IMG/VR virus record: IMGVR_UViG_3300028887_000070
Coordinates: 128,001-192,000 of that record
Length of the DNA stretch: 64,000 bases
Strand: one strand, 5' to 3'
Source of the DNA: a virus
Taxonomy: Duplodnaviria; Caudoviricetes
Both the position numbers and the translations under genes were made by a program. Of the stretch, positions 4,502 to 59,447 are shown piece by piece. Each line of letters starts with the position of its first letter. Position 1 is the stretch's first letter. Below the pieces are notes generated by a model. That model saw nothing but the letters and a program-made list of their open reading frames with translations, was not told where the DNA came from and did not search any database.

Positions 4502-5845
4502 ATGCTTAGATCATTCACATTCGGTTGTGGTCAGGGCGCTACTAAGGCAATGATCACTGCCATCGACAATGACGTACTCGATAAGAGCAGATGTGTCGTA
4601 GTTAACTCTACGATCAAAGATGTCCCTTCCGAGTACAGACCCACTGCTATCATCATCTCAGACGATCCTGACGCAGGTTGTGGTAAGGTAAGAGACGCAG
4701 CGCGTGCGTTGATGAACGACTTTATCAAGGTTAATCCAAACTATCTCGAGGAACTCATCCCCGAAGATACAGACTATGTAAACATCATCACCACTTCAGA
4801 GGGTGCTTCTGGTAGTGGTTCTTCTGTAGTACTTGCTCAGTATATCAGTAATTCTATGCAGCTTCCTGTTATCATCACACTGATTACAGGCTTTGAATCT
4901 GATGTAAGAGGTCTCCAGAACACCATCAACTACTTCAGAGACCTTAAGGGTGCTAACTGCGGAATCATCACTGTATCAAACAGACGTTTCCTCAATGAAG
5001 CTAATGGCAATATCTTCGTTGCCGAGAAGCTTGCTAACGAGGACATCTCCAAGACACTTTCTATCATCGGAGCTCAGGGTCTTATAGACTGCGAGCAGAA
5101 CATCGATGATACTGATCACTACAAGATTATCACCAATCCTGGTATAATCTTCGCTGGAGAAGTAGAAGTATCAGACCGTATCAAGAATGCTGACCAGTTC
5201 AACAAGCTTGTAGGTGACATGATCGACAATACTACTTCACTCGACTTCGAGCCTTCTGCTACTAAGGTAGGTATCTACATGAACATACCTGAGGGTACTA
5301 TAGAGGTTCTCGATACTGAGTTCAGTGTAATCAAGAAAAAGCTCTGCTGGAACGGATTCCAGGAGTTCTTCATCCACAGACAGTACAATCCTAAACAGAA
5401 GAGCTTCATCAGAGTCATTGCTTCAGGTATCAACATGCCTAAGGCTGAGCTGATGAATATGTACGACAAGTTCGAGAAGTCTACCAATCAGATGAACGCT
5501 GCAGAGGATGACTTCTTCGATACTCTTGGTAAGCTTGAGACTAATGCTCAGCTCGAGAAGAAGGTAGAGAGAGATGACTCATTTCTTGACGCCTTCGCAA
5601 CAGCTTCTAGCGATGAAGCTAGCGCAGTCTTATCTCGAAACAAGAGGAAGTCGGGTGTCAGACTCGGAACGTCAAAGCACTCAGCACCTGAGAAGGTTCA
5701 GGACACAACTAACAAGGTGGCTGATGAAGAGGTAAAGAAGGGTTCTAATCCTCTTACTTCTGACGGAAAGACACGTTCAAACCCTAAGCACTCTATGGGT
5801 ACTAGCAAGCACCTTACAGAGTTCTCGGAAGAGGGAATCAAGTAA
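4502..5845 (+). CDS. phuZ: Tubulin/FtsZ-family GTPase (PhuZ/TubZ-like)
   Basis: N-terminal GCGQG, GCGK loop, tubulin signature variant EGASGSG, NIDDTD T7-like loop, low-complexity C-terminal tail. Confidence 0.85.
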   Translation: MLRSFTFGCGQGATKAMITAIDNDVLDKSRCVVVNSTIKDVPSEYRPTAIIISDDPDAGCGKVRDAARALMNDFIKVNPNYLEELIPEDTDYVNIITTSEGASGSGSSVVLAQYISNSMQLPVIITLITGFESDVRGLQNTINYFRDLKGANCGIITVSNRRFLNEANGNIFVAEKLANEDISKTLSIIGAQGLIDCEQNIDDTDHYKIITNPGIIFAGEVEVSDRIKNADQFNKLVGDMIDNTTSLDFEPSATKVGIYMNIPEGTIEVLDTEFSVIKKKLCWNGFQEFFIHRQYNPKQKSFIRVIASGINMPKAELMNMYDKFEKSTNQMNAAEDDFFDTLGKLETNAQLEKKVERDDSFLDAFATASSDEASAVLSRNKRKSGVRLGTSKHSAPEKVQDTTNKVADEEVKKGSNPLTSDGKTRSNPKHSMGTSKHLTEFSEEGIK

Positions 5846-5973: not shown

Positions 5974-7233
5974 ATGTTACTAACAGAAATGTTCAGGAAC
6001 GCCGTTAAGGATTCCAAGGACTATGGCATGAAAACCGAGGCAGTGTTTGACGTTCAGTATAGCACTGGCTTCCCAAACGTTGACTATCTCAATGGTCAGA
6101 TCATCAGAGTGACTGACACTAACAGAGGTATAGAGTTTGAGTACGATAGCGTAGGCATCGTAGATGGCTCAATCAATATGGTAATCGGTCGTTCAGGATG
6201 TGGTAAGTCCACATTCATCAAGCAAGCCGCAGGCAATATAATAAGAGGCTTCGACAAGGGCGCTATCTTTGAGGATAGTATCGAGGGCGGTATCACTCGT
6301 CGTCGTGACGAGATACTTACAGGTATGACTCCAGAGGAGCTTAATACTAAGATGATCGTTCGTAATGCAGGTATCAGCACTGAGACTTTCTATAAGTCTA
6401 TCAAGATCATCTACGATAAGAAGACAGAGAATGCAGATGAATTTACCTATGATACTGGCAAGTTTGACAGTAGAGGTAACCGTATCTTCAAGATGCAGCC
6501 AACAGTATACATTCTGGACTCACTGGCTATGCTGATGCCTGAGAAGATGACTCAGGAAGAAGAGCTTAGTGGTCAGATGTCTACTACAGCAGCTGCTAAG
6601 ATGATAGCTACTACAATGAGAAGAATAGTTCCTCTCTGTAAGGCAGCTAACATCATCGTCTTCATCGTTAACCATATCACCCAGAAGATAGAGATCAATG
6701 CGTTCAGCCATTCTAAGGGTCAGAACATCTACCTCAAGCAGGATGAGACCTGCCCTGGTGGTGTAACACCTTTCTACATCGCAAACAATATCTTCAGACT
6801 TGATGACAACACCAAGCTTACTGAAGATAAGGGTCTTGGTATCTCTGGTAACCACGTCCTAATCACTATGGTTAAGTCTCGTACTAACCGTGCAGGCGCA
6901 AGTACAGATATGATCTTCAATCAGGACATTGGCTTCGATGTAATCCTCACACTCTACAACATGCTCAACGACAATGGTTTCATCAAGGGTGCAGGTGCAT
7001 ACCTCTACATTGATGGATATCAGGACGTTAAGTTCGCTCAGAAGAACTTCAAGAAGAAGCTCTTTGAGAGTGAAGAGTTCAAGAATGTCTTCCTCGACAC
7101 TTGTACTAAGGTTCTCCACAATATGCTCCATAGAATGGATTGTGCTACTGATGAAGAGTTCATCAAGGCTACTGGTATTACTCAGGAGCTCTACATGAGA
7201 CTCAACAGTAGAGAAGAAGATATCGTAGCATAA
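5974..7233 (+). CDS. uvsX: RecA/UvsX-like recombinase
   Basis: STGFPNVDYLNG, Walker A GRSGCGKST, Walker B YILDSLA, IVFIVNH, PGG, VKSRT. Confidence 0.85.
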   Translation: MLLTEMFRNAVKDSKDYGMKTEAVFDVQYSTGFPNVDYLNGQIIRVTDTNRGIEFEYDSVGIVDGSINMVIGRSGCGKSTFIKQAAGNIIRGFDKGAIFEDSIEGGITRRRDEILTGMTPEELNTKMIVRNAGISTETFYKSIKIIYDKKTENADEFTYDTGKFDSRGNRIFKMQPTVYILDSLAMLMPEKMTQEEELSGQMSTTAAAKMIATTMRRIVPLCKAANIIVFIVNHITQKIEINAFSHSKGQNIYLKQDETCPGGVTPFYIANNIFRLDDNTKLTEDKGLGISGNHVLITMVKSRTNRAGASTDMIFNQDIGFDVILTLYNMLNDNGFIKGAGAYLYIDGYQDVKFAQKNFKKKLFESEEFKNVFLDTCTKVLHNMLHRMDCATDEEFIKATGITQELYMRLNSREEDIVA

Positions 7234-7256
7234 ACTAGAGAGTTGTTATATACTAT
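7231..7256 (+). promoter_or_regulatory. Early-type promoter (TAAA...TATATACTAT) followed by a hairpin, upstream of the non-virion RNAP gene
   Basis: Motif shared with 4259, 12192, 25124, 31800, 42955 and 44345. Confidence 0.55.
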
Positions 7257-7312
7257 GGATTGGAGAGAGCCCACACTCTCTCTAATCTGTATCTTCAAAG
7301 GAGGATCACACC

Positions 7313-9544
7313 ATGAAAATGGAACAGAACCCGAAGTTTGATCAAGCATTTGCAGAGGTACATGCCACATTCAGGCAGGATCAGATAGATCTAATGCTTG
7401 GTCGTTCAGGACTCCAGCCATGTGAGTCTCTGAATTCATCATCACGAAAGATAATGCATTCCAACCAGAAGAAACAAGCTAAGTGTCCTAAGGAATCAGA
7501 AGTTCCTCTTGTTGGTACTGGAAGCGAGAATAGATATGGACACATGTCTTCTGCGTTTATAAGAGCAGAAGACTCACAAGAAGTAATAGCTAAGATAAGT
7601 AGGTACTCTATGTATCCAGATCACGAGTACTATCTTATTATCAGGAACGAACGTAACGAGCTCAATATGGTGACTCGTACTGTTTGTCAGCATAACACCG
7701 AAACATTCGGTTTCCTTTGGAACAATGACTATATCGACTCTCTTAATGAAGGAGATGTCATTCCTAAGGGAAAAGTATATAAGAAGAGCACCAGCTTTGA
7801 TGAGTATGACAACTATAAGGCTGGTGTCAATGCACTTGCTACATATGGAAGTCTTCCACAGACTACTGAAGATCCAGTAATCATCAGAGAAGGTTTCCGT
7901 AAGAAGCTTAGTTCTCCAGAGTTAAAGCCCATAACCGTTAAGTTGAATGATAACGATGTGCTTCTTAACTTGTATGGAGACGATACTGTCTATAAGGCTT
8001 TCCCTGATCTTGGAGAAGAGACAAAGAATGGTATACTCTGCTCTATAAGAAAGGCCAACTCAGACAACTCAGCATTCACCTTATCTAGAGACTCTCTTAG
8101 AAACATAACGATCTCTGATGAGACTATAGTTCCTAAGGAGGGTAAAGTCGTAGACATCAAGGTGTATTCTAACAAGCAGATAGCCCCAGGATGTGAAGAG
8201 GGAGAACTCTACAACGTCTTCGAGGGTCAGCTTAAAGCATATAATGATGAAGAGAACCGTTTCGCTAGACAGTTTGTCGAAGCGATGGCCAACTACATCA
8301 ACAACAAGGACTACAAGATATCGTATGAACTTGAAGAGATGTATTATACCTGTAAGGGTAGGCTTGAAGGTAAGCAGTTCATTGAAGATGGTAAGATCTC
8401 AAGTAACATGGTCATAGAGTTCCTTGTGTATTGTGATCATACTATATCTATAGGTGATAAGCTTGCTAATCGTAATGGTGGTAAGGGCGTTATCGCAGAC
8501 ATATGGCCTGATGAGAGAATGCCTAAACTTCCAGATGGTACTCCTGTCGACATCATATGGGACGAGAGTACTTGTGTAAACAGACTTAATATAGCTCAGC
8601 TCTCAGAGCTGTCTCTCAATCGTATCGGTAGAGGAATTCTTAACTTCATTGATTCAAACTGTCTTAATGCAGTCGAGATTTTCGATATTCTTGAGCATTA
8701 CTATAGAGAGCTTTCACCAGATCTCGCAGACTTCCTTAAGACTGCAATAGATAACTTTGCTTCTGATCAGGAAGCTATCTTGTTTATAGAGTCAATGCTT
8801 CACCCTAATGAAGGACCTAGAGGAATCTATACTTCTCTTCTTCCTATCAGTGAATGTGTAGACTTCGATAAGATTAGAAAGATCTATGAAGAGTTCCCAT
8901 ATATTAAACAGGAACATCTTCTTGTTTCTATCCCTAACTCAGATGGAACTTATCGTGACGTATGGTCTAGTAAACCATCTACAGTAGGTGAACAGTTCGT
9001 ATACATCCTCAAGCAGGAAGCTGAGGAGAAACACTCTGCTACTTCTGCATCTTCGACTAATATCAAGGATGAGAATAGTAAGAGTAAGGAATCTAAGGAG
9101 TATAGATGTGCTATCACTAAGACTCCAGTTAAGTGGGGCGAGATGGAGACAATGATCTTCCTCCACTGTAGTTCAGAGACAGTAGTAATCAACGCTATGC
9201 TGATGTCTCTGTCTCCTAGAGCACGAAGGAGTGTTATGGATATGCTTCTCGGAGATCCGTATCATGTAGACATTCATATTGATATGGATGCACGTAACAG
9301 ATCTGCAGAGAAGGTTCAGGCTATCATGAAGGCTATGGGACTTAGACTCAAGTTTAAGAAGATCCCAATAGTTCAAAAGCCTGTATTCGAAGTAATGCCG
9401 CAGAAGATGCTCTTTGAGGTTCTTCCACAGAAGATGCTCTTTGAACAGTTGCCGCAGAAGATGCTGTTCGAGCAGATGTCTCAGAAGATGTTATTTGAAC
9501 CGATGAAACAGGAGTTGCTCTTTAAGCCACTTTGGGTGGAGTAA
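7313..9544 (+). CDS. Non-virion RNA polymerase beta subunit, C-terminal half
   Basis: RpoB motifs SRKIMHSNQKKQA, VGTGSE, TEDPVII, GDKLANRNGGKGVI, DGTPVDII, VNRLNIAQ, WGEME. Confidence 0.92.
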   Translation: MKMEQNPKFDQAFAEVHATFRQDQIDLMLGRSGLQPCESLNSSSRKIMHSNQKKQAKCPKESEVPLVGTGSENRYGHMSSAFIRAEDSQEVIAKISRYSMYPDHEYYLIIRNERNELNMVTRTVCQHNTETFGFLWNNDYIDSLNEGDVIPKGKVYKKSTSFDEYDNYKAGVNALATYGSLPQTTEDPVIIREGFRKKLSSPELKPITVKLNDNDVLLNLYGDDTVYKAFPDLGEETKNGILCSIRKANSDNSAFTLSRDSLRNITISDETIVPKEGKVVDIKVYSNKQIAPGCEEGELYNVFEGQLKAYNDEENRFARQFVEAMANYINNKDYKISYELEEMYYTCKGRLEGKQFIEDGKISSNMVIEFLVYCDHTISIGDKLANRNGGKGVIADIWPDERMPKLPDGTPVDIIWDESTCVNRLNIAQLSELSLNRIGRGILNFIDSNCLNAVEIFDILEHYYRELSPDLADFLKTAIDNFASDQEAILFIESMLHPNEGPRGIYTSLLPISECVDFDKIRKIYEEFPYIKQEHLLVSIPNSDGTYRDVWSSKPSTVGEQFVYILKQEAEEKHSATSASSTNIKDENSKSKESKEYRCAITKTPVKWGEMETMIFLHCSSETVVINAMLMSLSPRARRSVMDMLLGDPYHVDIHIDMDARNRSAEKVQAIMKAMGLRLKFKKIPIVQKPVFEVMPQKMLFEVLPQKMLFEQLPQKMLFEQMSQKMLFEPMKQELLFKPLWVE
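9374..9541 (+). repeat. In-frame 27-bp tandem repeat encoding (PQKMLFEQL)n
   Basis: cagaagatg at 9401, 9428, 9455 and 9482; degenerate copies at 9374 and 9509. Confidence 0.9.
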
Positions 9545-9623
9545 AGCTTACTATAGTCATATAATATAGAAGGGTATGATGGTGAAAGCCATCATACCTA
9601 ACTTATGGAAAGGAGGCAATACA

Positions 9624-9812
9624 ATGGAAACCCCAACTACAGATGGAGTAGTACTTATAGGAATCTTCGGTTTCGCAATCGCTATCTTTATCACAGCACT
9701 GATATGCTTCGTGAAGATCACTATAAGTCCAAGAGATGAAGAAGAGGAGGAATGGGATGATGAAGATGAAGATCTCAACCCTCTTCAGATATCGGAAAGG
9801 AGTGAAAAGTAA
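9624..9812 (+). CDS. Small single-pass membrane protein with acidic tail
   Basis: AAGGAGG RBS; hydrophobic VVLIGIFGFAIAIFITALICFV followed by DEEEEEWDDEDED. Confidence 0.7.
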   Translation: METPTTDGVVLIGIFGFAIAIFITALICFVKITISPRDEEEEEWDDEDEDLNPLQISERSEK

Positions 9813-12160
9813 TGTATAAGCAGATCATTCAGCATCTTCTTCAGGGAGATACCTCTGATCTCACACCTGAGACAATCAGGAACATCAATGCTCATGTCGT
9901 AAGGTTCTTGAATCTGAGAAGTCTAGAGCCGCATGAGGTTGAAATAGTAGGAGATATACTGCACATCAGTAACATCATCTACAACAATACTGACAGGAGT
10001 ATACTTGTACTTGAAGATGGAGTCTATGATAACCTTCTTCAGATGTATAAGGGATACAATCCTAACTATCAGGTTGGTGCAGAGCCAGTACACTTTGCCC
10101 CTGCTGGTGAGACTATAGTTAAAGAAACAACTCAGCAGAGACCAGTACCGCTCTTCCAAGTGATAGACTATAACAGTGATATGCTCTTCAGGAATGATAT
10201 CTATTCTAACAACACGTATAGAAGAGCAGACTTTGGCGGAGAAGACGTTAAAGCGTCTAAGCGTATCCGCAACACTAGCCACAACTATCCGCAGCTTGTC
10301 GGAACTCTTGATAAAGCTAAGTTTACGCTCAATCAGGAAGCTATAGAGAGACAAGCTTGGGATAATCCGAATGTGGTTATCTTCGAAAGAGACTTCCTTG
10401 CTAAGCACATCCAGGAGGGTATAGTCAATCCTAATGACATAACCCTTGTATGCGAGCTTAAGTATGACGGAATTTCTGTAGAGGCAGATGTAACCGATGA
10501 AGTTATATCTGCTAGAACTAGAGGAGATACTGGTATGGATAAGGCTACAGACCTTACCTCAGTACTTCAGGGCTATCCATTCATGGAGGCCAAAGAATAT
10601 GCCAAGAAGGTCGGTCCTATAGAGCAGTTTGGTATGAAGTTTGAAGCTATCGTAGACAACTTTGCTCTTCAGGAACTCGACAGGAAGTATGGCATAAGAT
10701 ATGTGAGCTCACGTAATGCAGTTATCGGTCTTACTAGTAGGTCTGATGCTCGTAAGTATGCTCACTATATAACTCTTGTTCCTCTTCAGACTAGCCTGAG
10801 TATGGATGATGGTGTAACAAAAGCTGACACTATCATGAATCTTGGCAAGATGAGTAGAATAGAGGAGATAGAGTTCATGAACAAGTTCTATGCAAACGGT
10901 ATCTATATGAGCTATGCCGTTGTACATGGAAACTATCAGAACGTTCTGTATCAGGTGTATAAGTTCGTACAGGAAGCAGAAGCAATGAGAGACTACATAC
11001 CATTCAAGTATGATGGCATAGTTGTGTCTTATGTGGATCCTGTGATAAGAGCTGCACTTGGTAGAAAGAACTCAGTAAACCAGTTCTCTATAGCAATTAA
11101 GTTCAACACCATGAAGAAGCTTACCCAGTTCATCGGGTATGACTATACTGTTGGTAAGGACGGAACTATCACACCGATGATCAACTACAACCCAGTAGAG
11201 TTCTTCGGAGGAATCAACACTAAGTCTTCTGGACATTCATGGAAACGTTTCTATGAGCTTGGACTTCGTAAGGGTGATATCTTACAAGCAGAGTTCAGAA
11301 ACGATGTAATGGTGTACATCGAAAAGGCTAATGTGATAGAGAATCAGTATAACCCAATGCCACTGGAAGAGTTCCCAAGGAACTGTCCGTGTTGTGGCAC
11401 TCCATTAGTATTCTCAGACAAGAATGCCAAGTGCGTGAATATCGCATGCCCTGGAAGAGCAGTATCCAGAGTAACAGATATGATAGCTAAACTTGGTTTC
11501 AAGGGATTCGCTGAAGAGAGTGTTAAGAAGCTTGGACTTAGAGGATTCAATGATCTTGTAAACGGAATGACTGAAGAAAGAGTAGTAAAAGCTCTCGGCA
11601 AGGCAGATGGTCAGAACTTCATAGAGCAACTCTCTACGTTCCTGAGTACTCCACAGTTCGACTATATAGTGCTTGGAAGTCTTGGCTTCACTTCTTTGGC
11701 ATCAACTAAATGGAAAGCAATACTTCAGAAGGTCTCATTGAATGATCTTATAGCTCTTGACCAGATGACATTGTCTGCCAAGATGCAGAAGAAACCAAAC
11801 AAGATAGGACCTAAGACGATACAGACTGTACTTGAAGAGAGATCACTCTTCATGGAAGATCTTGTCGCAATAAGAAATCTCACTAACCTCATCACAGGTG
11901 GAGATATAAATAACTCAGCTCGTAAGGTAATCAGGTTCACTGGTTGTAGAGACGTCGACATGATGATGGCTCTCAACAAGGAAGGACATGATTGTTCAGA
12001 AGGTTCCGTTACCAAGACAACGGACATCTTATTAGTACCTTACATGGGATTCACTAGCACCAAGGTTGCTTCGGCAGTTAAGTACAACACCAAAGGTGCA
12101 TACATTCGTATCATCCCTATAGAAGAATTCAGAAAGAACCCAATCGCGTTCCTTCAGTAA
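9812..12160 (+). CDS. ligA: NAD-dependent DNA ligase
   Basis: ELKYDG adenylation motif, TRGD, DGIVV, IAIKF, VGKDGTITP, CPCCG..C..C zinc finger, C-terminal BRCT (FTG...SVTKTTDILL). Confidence 0.95.
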   Translation: MYKQIIQHLLQGDTSDLTPETIRNINAHVVRFLNLRSLEPHEVEIVGDILHISNIIYNNTDRSILVLEDGVYDNLLQMYKGYNPNYQVGAEPVHFAPAGETIVKETTQQRPVPLFQVIDYNSDMLFRNDIYSNNTYRRADFGGEDVKASKRIRNTSHNYPQLVGTLDKAKFTLNQEAIERQAWDNPNVVIFERDFLAKHIQEGIVNPNDITLVCELKYDGISVEADVTDEVISARTRGDTGMDKATDLTSVLQGYPFMEAKEYAKKVGPIEQFGMKFEAIVDNFALQELDRKYGIRYVSSRNAVIGLTSRSDARKYAHYITLVPLQTSLSMDDGVTKADTIMNLGKMSRIEEIEFMNKFYANGIYMSYAVVHGNYQNVLYQVYKFVQEAEAMRDYIPFKYDGIVVSYVDPVIRAALGRKNSVNQFSIAIKFNTMKKLTQFIGYDYTVGKDGTITPMINYNPVEFFGGINTKSSGHSWKRFYELGLRKGDILQAEFRNDVMVYIEKANVIENQYNPMPLEEFPRNCPCCGTPLVFSDKNAKCVNIACPGRAVSRVTDMIAKLGFKGFAEESVKKLGLRGFNDLVNGMTEERVVKALGKADGQNFIEQLSTFLSTPQFDYIVLGSLGFTSLASTKWKAILQKVSLNDLIALDQMTLSAKMQKKPNKIGPKTIQTVLEERSLFMEDLVAIRNLTNLITGGDINNSARKVIRFTGCRDVDMMMALNKEGHDCSEGSVTKTTDILLVPYMGFTSTKVASAVKYNTKGAYIRIIPIEEFRKNPIAFLQ

Positions 12161-15609: not shown

Positions 15610-15855
15610 GTGGCTGATATCTTTACTCGCTACTTCCTCTTCTCTCAGTCTCACTATGATAAGATCAAGGAGATTGAGAAGAAGGCAGGAAACAGAAACT
15701 ATAAACCTGGTACAGTATTAGTGAACGGCTACTATAGACCTTTCACTACTATGGAAACCAGACCAGAGAAGTATACTCAAGTGCACGGAGATGCTAAGAC
15801 CGTTCTGGTTGGAGACATCCGTAAGGTTAAGTATACTGATCCTGTAAAGGAGTGA
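15610..15855 (+). CDS. Hypothetical protein
   Basis: 81 aa, GTG start after AGGAGGTG. Confidence 0.7.
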   Translation: MADIFTRYFLFSQSHYDKIKEIEKKAGNRNYKPGTVLVNGYYRPFTTMETRPEKYTQVHGDAKTVLVGDIRKVKYTDPVKE

Positions 15856-16277
15856 TTACTATGTCAAAACCAAAGACAGAACCTTTGTTCAAAGTAATCA
15901 ATATCGGTGAGTGTCCATGCTGCGGTAAGGACGGTAAGCTAACTGTTAAGTTCCGCAACACTGAGTATGTGACACTCAACAAGAATGGAAGAGTGCAGAA
16001 ATGGACTGATGTACAGAACCATATCGGCACTGCTTTCTGTGGTACATGTATGCAGAGATTTGGCGCAATCAATCTGAGTGATCTCGTTGACATTCCTGGA
16101 GTGGTACGTGTAGTACCATTAGAGTATGTCAAGGAAGTCGCATTAGAATACCTCAAGGTCTATGCCAAGGATGAGTTCGAGGCTGCTGGAGAGAATCCAT
16201 TAGTGACCAAGACCATGACTGAAGCAGAGGATGCTGAGGAAGCCAGACAGCATATGGCAGAAGTATCATACTTCTAA
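15852..16277 (+). CDS. Zinc-ribbon protein
   Basis: CPCCG and CGTC pairs. Confidence 0.7.
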   Translation: MITMSKPKTEPLFKVINIGECPCCGKDGKLTVKFRNTEYVTLNKNGRVQKWTDVQNHIGTAFCGTCMQRFGAINLSDLVDIPGVVRVVPLEYVKEVALEYLKVYAKDEFEAAGENPLVTKTMTEAEDAEEARQHMAEVSYF

Positions 16278-25214: not shown

Positions 25215-28200
25215 ATGAGTATTCATATACATGAGCTTAAGCCCTACAAACTCTATAGCTCTAACAACAAGCTATACTTACCGTTGAATGAAGACTCTAA
25301 CAAGAAGGGTAGTGCTGTTATCCTTCTTACCCCTAACCTCGAATCATCTATAGGAGTAATCAACTCTAAGACCTTTATCAACAGAGCATGGTTCCAGTCC
25401 TACTATCTTGAGAAGAGCATCAATACTATTCTTACTCAAGAGAACTACATACAGAGCTTTGTAGACTCTACTGACAGATTCCTCGACTATATCTTCGTAG
25501 AGGCTAAGCTCCCCTCTGATAAGAGGAACAAACTCGATGACAAGCAGTTCGGCATTCCTAGTAAGAGGAAGTATCCTCTGAATGATGAAGCCCATGTTCG
25601 TGCTGCAGTGAGGATGTTCAACCATGTACATCCCGAAGATGAGAAGACACTTGCTCGTAACATCGTAAAGGCTATCAAGAAGTACAATATCACCGACCTT
25701 GAAGTAGGAGAAAACAATCGCTTCCATAAGTACTATCATCCTATCAAGGAGATGACATTTGACGATTATGATATCTACTTCTTCAAGGATACTGCTACTA
25801 TCACTAAGGAGTTCAAGGAGTGTGATACACTTTACTCTAAGGAGTATGGTAGAGGTATGACCCTTAAGGGAAGTGTAAACGACATTAAGATCCTCGTGAA
25901 AGCATATCACGAGGGCGAGAATGAGCTTGCTGGTTTTATATATGGTCGCAAGGAGTCTGTATCAGGTAAGACACTCGAGTGTACTATCTGTGTAGATCCT
26001 AATGAAGAGTATCAGGAGTACTGTACTAATGCTTTGATCTATGGTATGAGGAGTCATATCATGACAAACATGAAGGGTAAGTACGAGTATGCTACTATCT
26101 ATTACGATGAAGACATGACTCAGGTTATGACTCGTATAGCTACAAAATATAAGACTCTTCTCAAGGGTGAAGCACTCACTGGTATAGACAACAAAAAGGC
26201 TTCCAGAAAGAGTATCAAGCTTGTTCTTAAGGAAGAGACTGTACCTCTTGAGGAAAGCTACAAAGTAGATAGAGTCAGCGAAGCCACAATGACAGAGTTG
26301 GGTCTTCAGAGTGGAAACGAGATCATCATATGTGATGATGTCTTCAATGAAGATACTGTTGCTCGTAACAGTGCTAAGCTTAAGCAGATACTCTATCCAG
26401 AGAGAATACGTAATCAGAAGGATATCACTGCTATCTACAAGGCTGTAAAGAGTCAGTGTCCTTCTATTAGATTCACCTACTTCAACTATCCCGCTTATAA
26501 GATGAAGAATCTCTATGTAGATACATCTTACTACAACAAGGCATTCTTCGAGAATAAGAACAACACCTTTGTTAACGATAAGGCTGTTGACCTCTACTAC
26601 GATCTCATCGGTAGACTGCTCAACAACAAGGCTTTCGTTAACTCTGGATATACTAAGAAGACTCTTGTTATCCCAGTTATCGACTGGAACAAGAAGAATG
26701 GCGATATTCTCGACTACAGAGAGAATATCAATCCTATCTCTATCATGATACGTCTCCTTAGAACCAATAAGGTAGGCAAACTTCGTACTCTCTTCGGAGA
26801 TATGGATACTATCTTTCTTGGTGCTACAGGATACTTCAAGATCAACTTCCAGAACTTCGATAAGAATGTGATGTCTAAGTTCATGAACAATATCCGTACA
26901 CTCATCTCTAAGGCTCCTATAGAGGATGATGAGATGGTTCAGGATACTCCAGATGCTATAGTAACAGACATTGTAGATAAGCTGGAGAAGAGTCAGGGTA
27001 TACAGATGTATGCTCTTACTGGTACTAAGGGTGCTAGCAATAAGAGTTCACTATCTGGTCTTGCTAACAAGCTGGCTAGACTTCCAGAATCTCCTAAGGA
27101 TGAAAAGAAGGAGACTCCTAAGAAGGAGACAACTCCAAAGCCTGTAGAAAAGAAGGAAGAGCCTAAGAAGACAGAAACTACTGTTAAGGCTACTACCAAA
27201 ACTACAACTCCTAAGGAAGACAAGGAGAAGGTAGTTCCTAAGGAAGTAGGTCCTGCTAAGTCTGATAAGCAGGCTGAAACAGAGGATACTCTTCAGAAGA
27301 AAGTTAAAGTAGCTAAGGCTATAGCTGATGCTGCTTCTACATCTACCTCTACAGATGAAGCTATAGAGAAGCTCAACAACGACGAGTATATAGCTAACCT
27401 TATCAAGGACATCGCAGATGAAGAGTCTAATGGTGTTAAGGTATCTAGTGCTCGTACAGCACGTATCAACACTCTGAATGACAACTTCAAGACTCAGTCT
27501 GTAAAGGGTAAGTCTGTTAAGGAACTCATTGAGAAGTCTCAGGATACTGAGCTTGAAGAAGAGCTTCCTAAGACCTCACTCAGTATCAACTCTATCAACA
27601 AGGATCAGTGGTCTAATCTCCAGTACATCAACTTTAACAAGGAGTATGATGTAGATGAGGATATCATGGCAATCCTTTCTTTCTTCGGTACTAGAACAGT
27701 TCCTGTAGCTGTAAGAGATGTCAATGTAGAAGATACTTCTACTTCAGAAGACCTCATAGAGACATGGACTGCTCATATGGAAGACATTCATGGTACTCGT
27801 TTCACTCTCAAGTTTGATATCCCTAAGTTCATCAATAATCGTTTCATGAGACTTAGAGGTAATGATAAGGCTATCAATGCTCAGCTCATGAATCTTCCTA
27901 TCATAAAGACTGAGAAGGACGTTTGTCAGATCACTACAAATTATAACAAGATCTTCTTCAGAGTATATGGCTCTTCACTTGGTAAGAGTAACCTGTATGC
28001 TGACAAGATCTGTAAGACACTCAATAAGCTTGAAGGAAAGCATATCAATGTAAAGCTGGGTAACAACTACATCGGATCTCTGAAGTATGATCTTCCTATA
28101 GACTATATAGATCTTGGTACTAACTACTCTATGCTTTCATATAAGCACTATACATTCTACTTCGACCAGGATGTAATCAGAGAGAAGTATAAGGATAAGC

Positions 28201-30530
28201 TTGATCTTAAGCAGGGTACTCCTATAGGATACGACTCGCTTAAGGGAGAGATCATCTATCACCCAAACACAAACGTTATCTGTACTCAGATGATAGCAGA
28301 CTATCTCTGCCAATGTCCTGAGTTTAAGGAAATCTACGATGAGTGTAAGGCTAGTGTAAGATACTCTTATTCAGACGCTTCAATCATGACTACTACTATC
28401 CCTGTAGTTGTAATCTGCTGCTACTGTGAGGGACTTACTAAGACTCTCTCAAAGGCTAATATAGAGTACAGAATCAGTGAGACTCGTTCTTATGATAGAG
28501 CTACAGAGGACATCATCAAGTTCTCAGATGCTTATCTTATCTACAAGATCAACTACTCATCATCTATGCTTATGAATGGTCTTAAGGGTGTACCTACAGA
28601 TACATACTCTATCAAGGACATCAACACTAAGCAGATGTGGACAGAAGCACTCGACCTCTATGGCGGACGTATCAAGGCAGACGGTCTGGATAACTTCTAT
28701 GACCTCATGTTCGATCCTATCTCTAAGAGAACTTGTGAAGCATATGATATCCCTTCAGACTTCTGTTCTGCTCTCATCTATGCTTCAAACATGCTGGTTG
28801 ACTCTAAGTATAACAAGCATACAGACATTACTGGTAACAGATTCAGAACTAATGAGCTTGTTGCTGGTTATACATATAAGGCTCTTGCTAAGGCATATGC
28901 TGAGTATAGGACTCGTCTTAAGAAGACAGGTAAGGGTAACATGTCACTCAAGCAGTCTGCTATCATAGACCTTATCCTTCTCGACAACACTACTGGTGAT
29001 GCTTCTACAATCAATGATCTCTGTTACGCAGAAGCTGCTAACACTGTATCATTCAAGGGACTCTCTGGTATGAACTCAGAACGTTCTTACTCACTTGATA
29101 AGAGAACCTTCGATGATTCTATGAATGGTATACTCGGTATGTCTACTGGATTCGCTTCTACAGTTGGTACAGTAAGACAGACTACAGTCAATGCCAACGT
29201 TGCTGGTAAGAGAGGATACATCAAGGACACTGCTGGAAATACAGAGATCATGAATGATGTCAATACTATGGCTATGAATGAGGCTCTTGTTCCTGGCTGT
29301 ACTACACACGATGACCCATTCCGACTCGCTATGTCATTCACTCAGAGAACTAAACATGGTATGCGTGTACAGGGTGGTGATCCTTTACTCGTTACCAACG
29401 GTGCAGATGATGCTCTCGCTAACTTCACTCCAGACGTATTCTCAGTATGTGCTAAGCAGGATGGTAAGATAGTAGAGAGAACTGATGAGTATATAGTAGT
29501 CAAGTACAAGGATGGCTCTATAGACTATGTAGAACTTCGTAACAAGGTCTATAAGAACTCAGATGGTGGTTTCTATGCATCTGTTAAACTCAAAGCATCA
29601 GACAAGCTTGGCGGTACTGTAAAGGCTGGTCAGGTAATTGCCTATGATCCTCTGAGCTATGATCAGCATATGGGCTACGATGACAATCCTACATATATTC
29701 AGGGTGCTCTGCTTAAGGTAGGTATCATGACTACAGATGAAGGATTCGAAGACTCTACTGCTGTATCTAGCTATGTATGTGAAGCTCTTTCTTCAGATAT
29801 CATTACTCAGGTTGATATCAATCTTGAGAAGGGAACTAACGTATTCAATCTCGTTAAGATTGGTCAGCCTATCCAGGAGGGTGATCCTCTTCTCGTTATA
29901 CAGAACTCTTACGAAGATGACGATGTCAATACACTTCTTAAGAACCTTGTAGATGATGAAGAGACAGTAACTTCTCTTGGTCGTATACCTATCAAGTCAC
30001 ATAACACTGGCTATATAGAAGACATCAAGATGTATAGAACTTGTGAAATCTCAGAACTCTCACCATCTCTCCAGAAGATAGTAAAGGAGTATGAGAAGAA
30101 GCAGGGTGAGATTCGTAAGACTATCGAGAAGTACGACAAGGTAAAGGCTCAGTCCTATACTAACGACCAGAAGCTCTCTAATACAGGAAAGCTTAAGGGC
30201 CTTGAGTCAGGAGTACTGATAGAGGTCTATGTTAGATACAAGGATGACTTCGCTACAGGAGATAAGCTTATCGCACTCGGAGCTCAAAAGGGCGTATGTA
30301 AGGAAGTCTTCCCTAAGGGCAAGGAACCTAAATCTGAATACAGACCAGACGAACCAATCGATGTACTCTTCTCTATGAGATCCTTTGATGCTCGTATGTG
30401 TGCTACTCCGCTTCTCCATGGTATGGCTAACAAGTTCCTCGTAGAACTTGATCGTCAGGTTAAGGATATTATGGGTATCAAGCAAGACTACACTGTACAC
30501 CGTAAGGACATAGAAGACAAGCTCAAGTAA
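25215..30530 (+). CDS. Virion RNA polymerase beta subunit, large N-terminal part, with accessory N-terminal domains
   Basis: HDDPFRLAMSFTQ, GFEDS, GDKL....AQKGV, PIDVLFS..SFDARM; lacks the RpoB tail found in 1-672; late promoter. Confidence 0.88.
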   Translation: MSIHIHELKPYKLYSSNNKLYLPLNEDSNKKGSAVILLTPNLESSIGVINSKTFINRAWFQSYYLEKSINTILTQENYIQSFVDSTDRFLDYIFVEAKLPSDKRNKLDDKQFGIPSKRKYPLNDEAHVRAAVRMFNHVHPEDEKTLARNIVKAIKKYNITDLEVGENNRFHKYYHPIKEMTFDDYDIYFFKDTATITKEFKECDTLYSKEYGRGMTLKGSVNDIKILVKAYHEGENELAGFIYGRKESVSGKTLECTICVDPNEEYQEYCTNALIYGMRSHIMTNMKGKYEYATIYYDEDMTQVMTRIATKYKTLLKGEALTGIDNKKASRKSIKLVLKEETVPLEESYKVDRVSEATMTELGLQSGNEIIICDDVFNEDTVARNSAKLKQILYPERIRNQKDITAIYKAVKSQCPSIRFTYFNYPAYKMKNLYVDTSYYNKAFFENKNNTFVNDKAVDLYYDLIGRLLNNKAFVNSGYTKKTLVIPVIDWNKKNGDILDYRENINPISIMIRLLRTNKVGKLRTLFGDMDTIFLGATGYFKINFQNFDKNVMSKFMNNIRTLISKAPIEDDEMVQDTPDAIVTDIVDKLEKSQGIQMYALTGTKGASNKSSLSGLANKLARLPESPKDEKKETPKKETTPKPVEKKEEPKKTETTVKATTKTTTPKEDKEKVVPKEVGPAKSDKQAETEDTLQKKVKVAKAIADAASTSTSTDEAIEKLNNDEYIANLIKDIADEESNGVKVSSARTARINTLNDNFKTQSVKGKSVKELIEKSQDTELEEELPKTSLSINSINKDQWSNLQYINFNKEYDVDEDIMAILSFFGTRTVPVAVRDVNVEDTSTSEDLIETWTAHMEDIHGTRFTLKFDIPKFINNRFMRLRGNDKAINAQLMNLPIIKTEKDVCQITTNYNKIFFRVYGSSLGKSNLYADKICKTLNKLEGKHINVKLGNNYIGSLKYDLPIDYIDLGTNYSMLSYKHYTFYFDQDVIREKYKDKLDLKQGTPIGYDSLKGEIIYHPNTNVICTQMIADYLCQCPEFKEIYDECKASVRYSYSDASIMTTTIPVVVICCYCEGLTKTLSKANIEYRISETRSYDRATEDIIKFSDAYLIYKINYSSSMLMNGLKGVPTDTYSIKDINTKQMWTEALDLYGGRIKADGLDNFYDLMFDPISKRTCEAYDIPSDFCSALIYASNMLVDSKYNKHTDITGNRFRTNELVAGYTYKALAKAYAEYRTRLKKTGKGNMSLKQSAIIDLILLDNTTGDASTINDLCYAEAANTVSFKGLSGMNSERSYSLDKRTFDDSMNGILGMSTGFASTVGTVRQTTVNANVAGKRGYIKDTAGNTEIMNDVNTMAMNEALVPGCTTHDDPFRLAMSFTQRTKHGMRVQGGDPLLVTNGADDALANFTPDVFSVCAKQDGKIVERTDEYIVVKYKDGSIDYVELRNKVYKNSDGGFYASVKLKASDKLGGTVKAGQVIAYDPLSYDQHMGYDDNPTYIQGALLKVGIMTTDEGFEDSTAVSSYVCEALSSDIITQVDINLEKGTNVFNLVKIGQPIQEGDPLLVIQNSYEDDDVNTLLKNLVDDEETVTSLGRIPIKSHNTGYIEDIKMYRTCEISELSPSLQKIVKEYEKKQGEIRKTIEKYDKVKAQSYTNDQKLSNTGKLKGLESGVLIEVYVRYKDDFATGDKLIALGAQKGVCKEVFPKGKEPKSEYRPDEPIDVLFSMRSFDARMCATPLLHGMANKFLVELDRQVKDIMGIKQDYTVHRKDIEDKLK

Positions 30531-59114: not shown

Positions 59115-59447
59115 TTAGAGCTCTACTACCACTTCACCACTAGACATAGTTCTGATTGTATTATAGTTGGTCTCATTGGTTGGCTTTCTCTCGATGACTT
59201 GGAAGAGTTGCTTCTGCTCTATTGCATCTACTCGACTGCTGAGATTACACAACTCTTCTCTTATGATTCTTATATCTGATTGTATAGCTAGTAGAGCTCT
59301 CTCTACTGTTGGATCTGAATTACCATTGCCTACTCCTCTTAAAGCCTCACTAAGGTGGCTAGCCATAGAAGCAAACATTGCATCGTTTTGTCTTTGCTGA
59401 ACTTCTTCGTAGTAGTTAGCTAATAACTGTTCGTCTTTTCCATTCAT
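59115..59447 (-). CDS. Hypothetical coiled-coil protein
   Basis: 110 aa, GGAGG RBS, own terminator. Confidence 0.65.
   Translation of the reverse strand: MNGKDEQLLANYYEEVQQRQNDAMFASMASHLSEALRGVGNGNSDPTVERALLAIQSDIRIIREELCNLSSRVDAIEQKQLFQVIERKPTNETNYNTIRTMSSGEVVVEL

Follow-up and report, generated by a model that had tools for sequence, protein, structure and literature searches.

A lineage-specific peptide tag, present in six tandem copies at the C-terminus of the non-virion RNA polymerase beta subunit of an uncultured rumen jumbo phage, recurs on other proteins of its genome

We analysed a window of 64,000 nucleotides (nt), bases 128001-192000 of the 231,846-bp IMG/VR virus record IMGVR_UViG_3300028887_000070 (estimated 100% complete, 41% G+C), with respect to the C-terminal tail encoded by a gene for a subunit of a multisubunit RNA polymerase (RNAP). 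The tail is built of six tandem units of a short hydrophobic peptide, hereafter the tag. The same peptide is found on the C-terminal half of the beta' subunit, on a DnaB-like helicase, in a loop of the nicotinamide adenine dinucleotide (NAD)-dependent DNA ligase and on an orphan protein, g091, and it is respelled together on these proteins by related phages. The tail is probably a multivalent array of a lineage-private docking tag, that is, of a short hydrophobic peptide displayed on a disordered tether, and the tag most likely links late transcription to the phage's own replication machinery and not to the host sliding clamp. The full genome of the record is labelled G000 and its proteome comprises 204 open reading frames (ORFs); coordinates refer to the window unless preceded by this label.

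The polymerase gene was identified by homology. Its product matched PHROG 3295 at 1.4e-93 as well as Pfam Rpb2_6, and chain C of PDB 7S00, the non-virion RNA polymerase (nvRNAP) of phage AR9, aligned with residues 33-678 at 2.4e-69, the similarity to the solved subunit including the catalytic double-psi beta-barrel (DPBB) region. AR9 gp089, annotated as a non-virion subunit, was the best match in a cultured phage, and the gene order UvsX-like recombinase, beta C-terminal half, NAD ligase is common to AR9 and G000, both results indicating the non-virion and not the virion copy. On this homology the gene encodes the C-terminal half of the nvRNAP beta subunit, a homologue of AR9 gp089, and the original prediction, which had named it the non-virion RNAP beta subunit, was right for that half. 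A second Rpb2_6 match of the genome was located in a separate 1771-amino acid (aa) ORF (25215-30530, plus strand), presumably encoding a very long fused subunit, similar to beta, of the virion polymerase; its C-terminus carries no tag.

The translation of the gene ends exactly in the residues first reported for it, QKPVFEVMP-QKMLFEVLP-QKMLFEQLP-QKMLFEQMS-QKMLFEPMK-QELLFKPLWVE, and the core of the units can be written as x-[MLP]-[LV]-F-x-x-[LMIV] (Table 1). In the homologue alignment F681 is nearly invariant, and a basic stretch precedes the first tag in every homologue. Tandem Repeats Finder returned a 27-nt period at 9395-9523, with 4.8 copies, 72% matches and a score of 111, and the pattern Qxx[LMIV]F matched six times in the beta C-terminal half and no more than twice in any other ORF of the proteome. 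The hexapeptide Q-K-M-L-F-E is unchanged in units 2 to 5 despite the use of CTC, CTG and TTA for Leu, TTT and TTC for Phe, and GAG and GAA for Glu. When the gene was compared with that of a 94%-identical relative, the ratio of non-synonymous to synonymous substitution rates (dN/dS) was 0.08 in the tail, a value resting on 57 codons, and likewise 0.08 in the body, while dS was 1.67 in the tail against 0.27 in the body, a sixfold difference that repeat shuffling may have inflated. The low tail dN/dS supports selection at the protein level, which had originally been proposed from the synonymous divergence between units, and its combination with a high dS fits repeat shuffling under protein-level constraint. 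The AlphaFold2 (AF2) model, calculated with 32 homologues, showed a confident core followed by a coil at residues 692-743, with a predicted local distance difference test (pLDDT) score of 30-45. The tail carrying the tag units is thus predicted to be disordered, which suggests that the array acts as a tether.

Besides the six copies on beta, the G000 tally comprises one tag on beta', two on the helicase, two in the ligase loop and one on g091. The beta' C-terminal half (G000 213306-215447), homologous to AR9 gp154, has an extra tail carrying K-P-L-F-E-I-I. Protein g091 (194 aa; G000 94825-95409, minus strand) ends in Q-M-L-F-T-P-M-W, resembling the last beta unit, and the expression [LMPIV]F.P[LMFIV]W matched in the G000 proteome only g091 and the beta C-terminal half, in both at the extreme C-terminus. 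The helicase and ligase tags were located by re-scanning the proteome with a position-specific scoring matrix (PSSM). The helicase (G000 103179-105299; PHROG 19) contains P-L-F-R-V-I and N-L-F-E-V-M within its final 30 residues, and the ligase, encoded in the window, is the second tag client there (Table 1). All the tags are found on flexible termini or loops: those of the helicase and beta' sit within the last 35 residues, and the g091 tail has an AF2 pLDDT of about 55. The tags of beta', helicase and ligase in G000 have no Q at the Q position. One motif is thus common to replication and late-transcription proteins of the same phage.

Other occurrences of tag-like peptides were also examined. 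At protein termini a loose tag pattern was found in 11 of the 204 ORF products, a number not above chance. Two orphans of the window are listed as candidate clients only (Table 1); the 141-aa protein is a joint best PSSM match outside the training set and has no family match, and the 110-aa protein had no PHROG match. A 575-aa protein ending in L-L-F-E-L-M was rejected as a chance match, since its homologue in the related genome G005 departs from the tag of that lineage. A 286-aa PHROG 12252 protein (G000 120427-121287, minus strand) ends in P-L-F-R-S-P-W-D, its G005 homologue not obviously following the G005 tag, and a 534-aa orphan (G000 97868-99472, minus strand) contains K-P-L-F-D-P about 40 residues before its end. 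The neighbouring UvsX-type recombinase was searched and had no matching motif; a mimicry of BRC repeats directed at this recombinase was dropped on that account. The idea that the tail rides on a tubulin-like protein was likewise dropped for want of support.

The behaviour of the tag in related phages was then analysed on client homologues retrieved from up to 40 related genomes, each compared with the beta tail of its own genome; for g091, synteny was used to find the homologues and profile iteration to confirm them. Each client end was scored against the beta tail by its best ungapped BLOSUM62 6-mer, and genome labels were permuted after removal of near-duplicate lineages. Co-variation with the beta tail was detected for all four clients: g091 (16 lineages, permutation p <= 2.5e-4), the beta' C-terminal half (26 lineages, p <= 5e-5), the helicase tail (25 lineages, p <= 1e-5) and the ligase loop (41 lineages, p <= 1e-5), where the region of residues 111-129 carries each lineage's own tag. 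Individual genomes illustrate the pattern. In G005 both beta and beta' end in L-F-K-Y-M-G-D, and the g091 homologue ends in S-L-F-I-E-F next to beta repeats of the form Q-L-F-I-E-C. G007 shows N-P-F-I-H-V-A at the helicase end, N-P-F-I-H-P in the ligase and N-P-F-I-H-F in the beta repeats; G022 has R-G-M-I-Y-E at the helicase end and R-G-M-V-Y-E on beta; G023 (locus L043) carries K-I-W-N-K on ligase and beta' and K-V-W-H-K on beta; in G030 the tags are A-F-S and A-F-T throughout.

Within the whole G005 genome (173 ORFs) a strict tag expression matched only beta, beta' and the g091 homologue. The codons for the seven identical residues that G005 beta and beta' have in common differ at four synonymous positions, which rules out gene conversion as the source of their likeness; synonymous differences between copies at unlinked loci indicate that the likeness is kept at the protein level. 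A metagenome homologue of g091 ends in P-L-F-T-R-V, a peptide repeated by a metagenome beta C-terminal half, and the two come from different samples and could not be linked. In G036-G040, a sub-clade further removed, beta' has no tail at its end, so that the complete system is restricted to the nearer clade.

The tail itself was compared among metagenome homologues and 79 IMG/VR loci of uncultured jumbo phages, and it was present in all the relatives examined. All homologues compared share an anchor, consisting of a G-L-R-L-x-F strand and a basic linker, followed by several copies of a short hydrophobic peptide; the copies are alike inside one protein and differ between lineages. The Q is kept only in homologues at least 76% identical. 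Homologues with 55-60% identity have repeats like N-P-F-K-R-I, S-P-F-V-R-V or L-F-T-R-V, and in more distant homologues the repeats read P-F-T, A-F-T, P-I-x-F, P-M-x-F, A-I-E-F, V-M-C-K, K-V-W-H-K or G-M-V-Y (G-M-V-Y-E). Spacers range from 9 to 12 residues within one protein, and many relatives show a layout of tag pair, helical linker and tag pair. AR9 gp089 stops about 20 residues past the conserved core and has no such tail. Our literature searches found no description of tails of this kind on jumbo-phage polymerases.

A single peptide that unrelated proteins display on flexible tethers, and that changes its spelling on all these proteins in concert, suggests linear motifs read by one co-evolving partner, and a shared partner that co-evolves with its clients would be encoded by the phage. 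All tagged proteins may thus dock on this common partner. Since the other clients are replisome enzymes, the partner would most likely be a DNA-bound replication hub, for example a divergent protein resembling a sliding clamp. Two arms, with six tags on beta and one on beta', would then attach the late RNA polymerase to the hub, a grip comparable to that of T4 gp33 and gp55 on gp45. Six copies could provide avidity for an oligomeric partner, or fast rebinding, and docking would bring late transcription preferentially to phage DNA undergoing replication. The original prediction had proposed a clamp tether coupling late transcription to replication, or else another docking signal. The coupling to replication is plausible, as the client list mirrors that of T4 gp45, and the more general docking signal is favoured by the disordered tail, the tag on four other proteins and the co-variation across relatives; the bacterial clamp motif on which the tether had been founded fared worse, as discussed below.

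The search for the reader of the tag produced one candidate. Two genes far apart in the genome encode the halves of a split family-B DNA polymerase (G000 6106-8142 and 210462-212618), the catalytic half adjoining the beta' C-terminal half gene, as in AR9, and the exonuclease half being followed by an unannotated conserved ORF of 228 aa (G000 8139-8825) whose start codon overlaps the polymerase stop codon. The position of this ORF behind the polymerase gene is kept in 14/14 relatives where it was found; no internal duplication was detectable in its product.

Several results weigh against a docking array read by a clamp-like hub. The Pfam families PF00712 (DnaN-N), PF02916 (gp45-N) and PF00705 (PCNA-N) had no match in the genome, and group-1 jumbo phages have been described as devoid of a classical clamp (PMC7824862). 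The 228-aa candidate had no Pfam or PHROG match and no PDB profile match, and hhalign against T4 gp45 gave a probability of 0.5%. A tag-like end is missing from both halves of the split DNA polymerase, in G000 as well as in G005, in contrast to T4 gp43. Finally, the co-variation score is crude and the lineages are not fully independent.

The same address could be shared by all these proteins and yet be read by something other than a clamp, namely another part of the replisome, such as the split family-B polymerase with its small neighbour, or a scaffold of a replication and transcription compartment. We consider such a reader unlikely, although it deserves attention. The polymerase halves are untagged in G000, as expected of a reader, the neighbouring 228-aa protein shows no clamp signal in its sequence, and the second gene upstream of the beta gene is tubulin-like. 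Many tags are hydrophobic with acidic residues behind them, which resembles the tails of clients of replisome hubs, and in T7 the polymerase gp5 reads the tails of gp4 and gp2.5. However, nothing points to one specific alternative, and a ligase loop, a helicase and a late polymerase correspond to the client spectrum of the T4 clamp.

An arrangement with no separate reader, in which the tags act as homotypic stickers pairing like-with-like as short beta-strands to form a condensate or a small sheet, appears improbable. Pairing of this kind would explain why all copies stay similar, within a protein and between proteins, and the richness of the tags in beta-formers (V, I, F, Y, W, T) amid charged spacers, as well as the paired layout of many relatives, resembles a sticker-and-spacer design. 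Nevertheless, the tags have just 5 to 8 residues, AF2 shows no structure for the array, and the variable spacers within one protein fit independent linear motifs, while the T4 precedent accounts for the same pattern with a reader.

Attachment to the host beta clamp was the basis of the original prediction. According to this explanation, the Qxx[LV]F units would bind the host DnaN dimer in its peptide pocket and thereby attach the polymerase to host-loaded clamps. The bacterial clamp-binding motif QL[SD]LF is found on Pol II/IV/V, Hda, MutS and others, and five of the six units fit the looser Q-x-x-L-F (unit 1 having V) on a disordered C-terminal tail, as in the bacterial clients; moreover, no phage clamp was recognisable with the three Pfam clamp families. 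Use of the host clamp for late transcription has been reported for phage Mu (PMC12867686). The consensus Q-L-[S/D]-L-F is not matched, however, since the units read Q-K-M-L-F, Q-K-P-V-F and Q-E-L-L-F, with L at position 2 or S/D at position 3 in none of them. The Q is neither present on the beta', helicase and ligase tags nor kept beyond the closest homologues, and six tandem copies would be atypical. The unrelated peptides found at the same place in relatives, from N-P-F-K-R-I and S-P-F-V-R-V to K-V-W-H-K and G-M-V-Y-E, cannot be accounted for by a conserved DnaN pocket, and the co-variation over five proteins points to a partner evolving with the phage. A tether to the host clamp is therefore very unlikely, and a Qxx[LV]F peptide on a phage protein should not be taken as a host-clamp motif before relatives are examined.

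A functionless expansion of repeats at the 3' end of the gene, for which a 27-nt tandem repeat with a very high dS might speak, as expected from gain, loss and shuffling by slippage, is hardly tenable in view of the low tail dN/dS, the presence of the tail in all relatives examined and the recurrence of the peptide, with synonymous differences, at unlinked loci on four other proteins.

The closest known system is found in T4, where one gp45-binding motif recurs in a ligase loop and on the tails of gp43, gp33 and gp55, and where two arms from the polymerase hold the clamp (PMC2988020; PMC6212786). As with the gp45 clients of T4 and RB69, a short hydrophobic motif on flexible tethers, including a ligase loop, is common in G000 to replication enzymes and the late-transcription machinery, and the polymerase would reach its putative partner by two arms. 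By contrast, the T4 arms are small factors on the host enzyme, whereas in G000 they belong to the catalytic beta and beta' halves of a phage polymerase and one of them is a six-copy array. The G000 motif differs from L-D-F-L-F, and close lineages spell it differently; its clients include the helicase and not the DNA polymerase, whereas gp43 is a client in T4, and no gp45 homologue is detectable. By analogy, the feature may be regarded as a variant of the T4-type clamp-client logic.

With AR9 nvRNAP (gp089 and gp154 as the C-terminal halves of beta and beta'; PDB 7S00) the body of the protein is clearly homologous and gene order is the same; unlike the G000 subunits, gp089 and gp154 stop shortly past the conserved core and have no motif in common. 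It is the uncultured gut and rumen clade that has added the tails. The C-terminal domain (CTD) of RNA polymerase II provides an analogy only, as a disordered docking platform of tandem short repeats on a catalytic subunit; beta and beta' of cellular polymerases have their C-termini on the upstream side, where the RNA exits. The CTD repeats, Y-S-P-T-S-P-S-type heptads carried by the largest subunit, are unrelated in sequence to the 9-residue hydrophobic units of the G000 array, which lacks a Ser/Thr/Tyr phospho-code. This array is located on the beta and not the beta' homologue, and its presumed partners would be linked to the replisome and not to RNA processing. For this genome, the present contribution consists of the six-copy beta array, the second arm on beta', the g091 client, and the helicase and ligase clients with permutation tests.

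The orphan client g091 was further investigated by structure prediction. The AF2 model (pLDDT 88.7) consists of a three-layer alpha/beta domain and a free tail. A Foldseek search of the PDB with this model gave no match at E <= 0.001, and VIA-align yielded no informative structural match (best Z 5.9). Its matches in BFVD were uncharacterised proteins of gut Myoviridae only; within these gut phages, neighbouring proteins matched the g091 model (TM 0.44-0.50). On that basis the next gene (G000 94346-94828, minus strand; 160 aa) looks like a paralogue of g091, and in the related genome G016 the 165-aa paralogue likewise ends in the tag of that lineage. A co-fold of g091 residues 1-172, the 160-aa neighbour and beta tail residues 682-743, meant to probe g091 and its neighbour as readers and run without controls, returned an ipSAE of 0.00, a value that speaks neither for nor against them. 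Most relatives keep g091, the gene of about 165 aa and a 268-aa protein (PHROG 21037) as a syntenic trio. Upstream of g091, a 799-aa acidic protein (G000 95469-97868, minus strand) has a strongly basic tail rich in Lys, Asn and Arg, which is kept in relatives while the remainder of the protein diverges.

Some further features surround the beta gene. Two genes upstream, a 447-aa protein (4502-5845, plus strand) gave a weak match to the Tubulin/FtsZ GTPase family (E 2.2e-4, 22 bits), under the Pfam cut-off; a PhuZ/TubZ-like gene in an AR9-like phage would be notable. Behind the stop codon of the beta gene lies a G+C-rich hairpin (9545-9625, plus strand), and past it an ORF of 78 aa with a hydrophobic N-terminal segment (9576-9812, plus strand) contains 6.7 copies of the 6-nt tandem repeat AGATGA (9734-9773).

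Table 1. Coordinates, in the window, of the beta C-terminal half, its tag array and the other tag-bearing proteins.
Feature	Position	Strand	Basis
nvRNAP beta subunit, C-terminal half, 743 aa (P0001)	7313..9544	+	Pfam Rpb2_6, PHROG 3295, PDB 7S00 chain C
Short basic linker (residues 681-686) joining the final conserved body strand to the array	9353..9370	+	
Six tandem 9-residue tag units	9371..9532	+	Codon table, Tandem Repeats Finder period 27
Tag unit 1	9371-9397	+	
Tag unit 2	9398-9424	+	
Tag unit 3	9425-9451	+	
Tag unit 4	9452-9478	+	
Tag unit 5	9479-9505	+	
Tag unit 6	9506-9532	+	
Terminal W-V-E and stop codon, giving with unit 6 the ending L-F-K-P-L-W	9533..9544	+	
NAD-dependent DNA ligase, second tag client	9812..12160	+	Pfam DNA_ligase_aden, PHROG 3869
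Two ligase tag copies, P-L-F-Q-V-I and M-L-F-R-N-D, in the loop of residues 111-129 before the adenylation domain	10142..10198	+	
141-aa zinc-finger-like orphan, E-P-L-F-K-V-I at residues 10-16, candidate client only	15852..16277	+	PSSM 14.8
110-aa orphan, Q-K-Q-L-F-Q-V-I near the C-terminus, candidate client only	59115..59447	-	PSSM 14.8

In AR9- and phiKZ-type phages the late genes are transcribed by the phage's own alpha-less polymerase, and we know of no account of how this enzyme is directed to replicating DNA; replication-coupled late transcription is, to our knowledge, known only from T4-type phages, which borrow the host polymerase. A tag common to helicase and ligase offers a concrete, testable link of the late polymerase to replicating DNA. 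Its respelling lineage by lineage amounts to dozens of natural compensatory experiments for mapping the reader, and matched tag sets could serve as orthogonal peptide-and-partner pairs. More broadly, and as a tentative proposal about which we keep some reservation, a clade of uncultured gut and rumen jumbo phages may run a private, fast-evolving docking code that wires its own multisubunit RNA polymerase to the replication fork by a CTD-like array on beta and an arm on beta', the reader being a clamp-like hub too divergent for sequence methods. If this were true, replication-coupled late transcription would have arisen independently in phages that bring their own polymerase, and the respelling of the tag between lineages would constitute an incompatibility barrier among co-infecting relatives.

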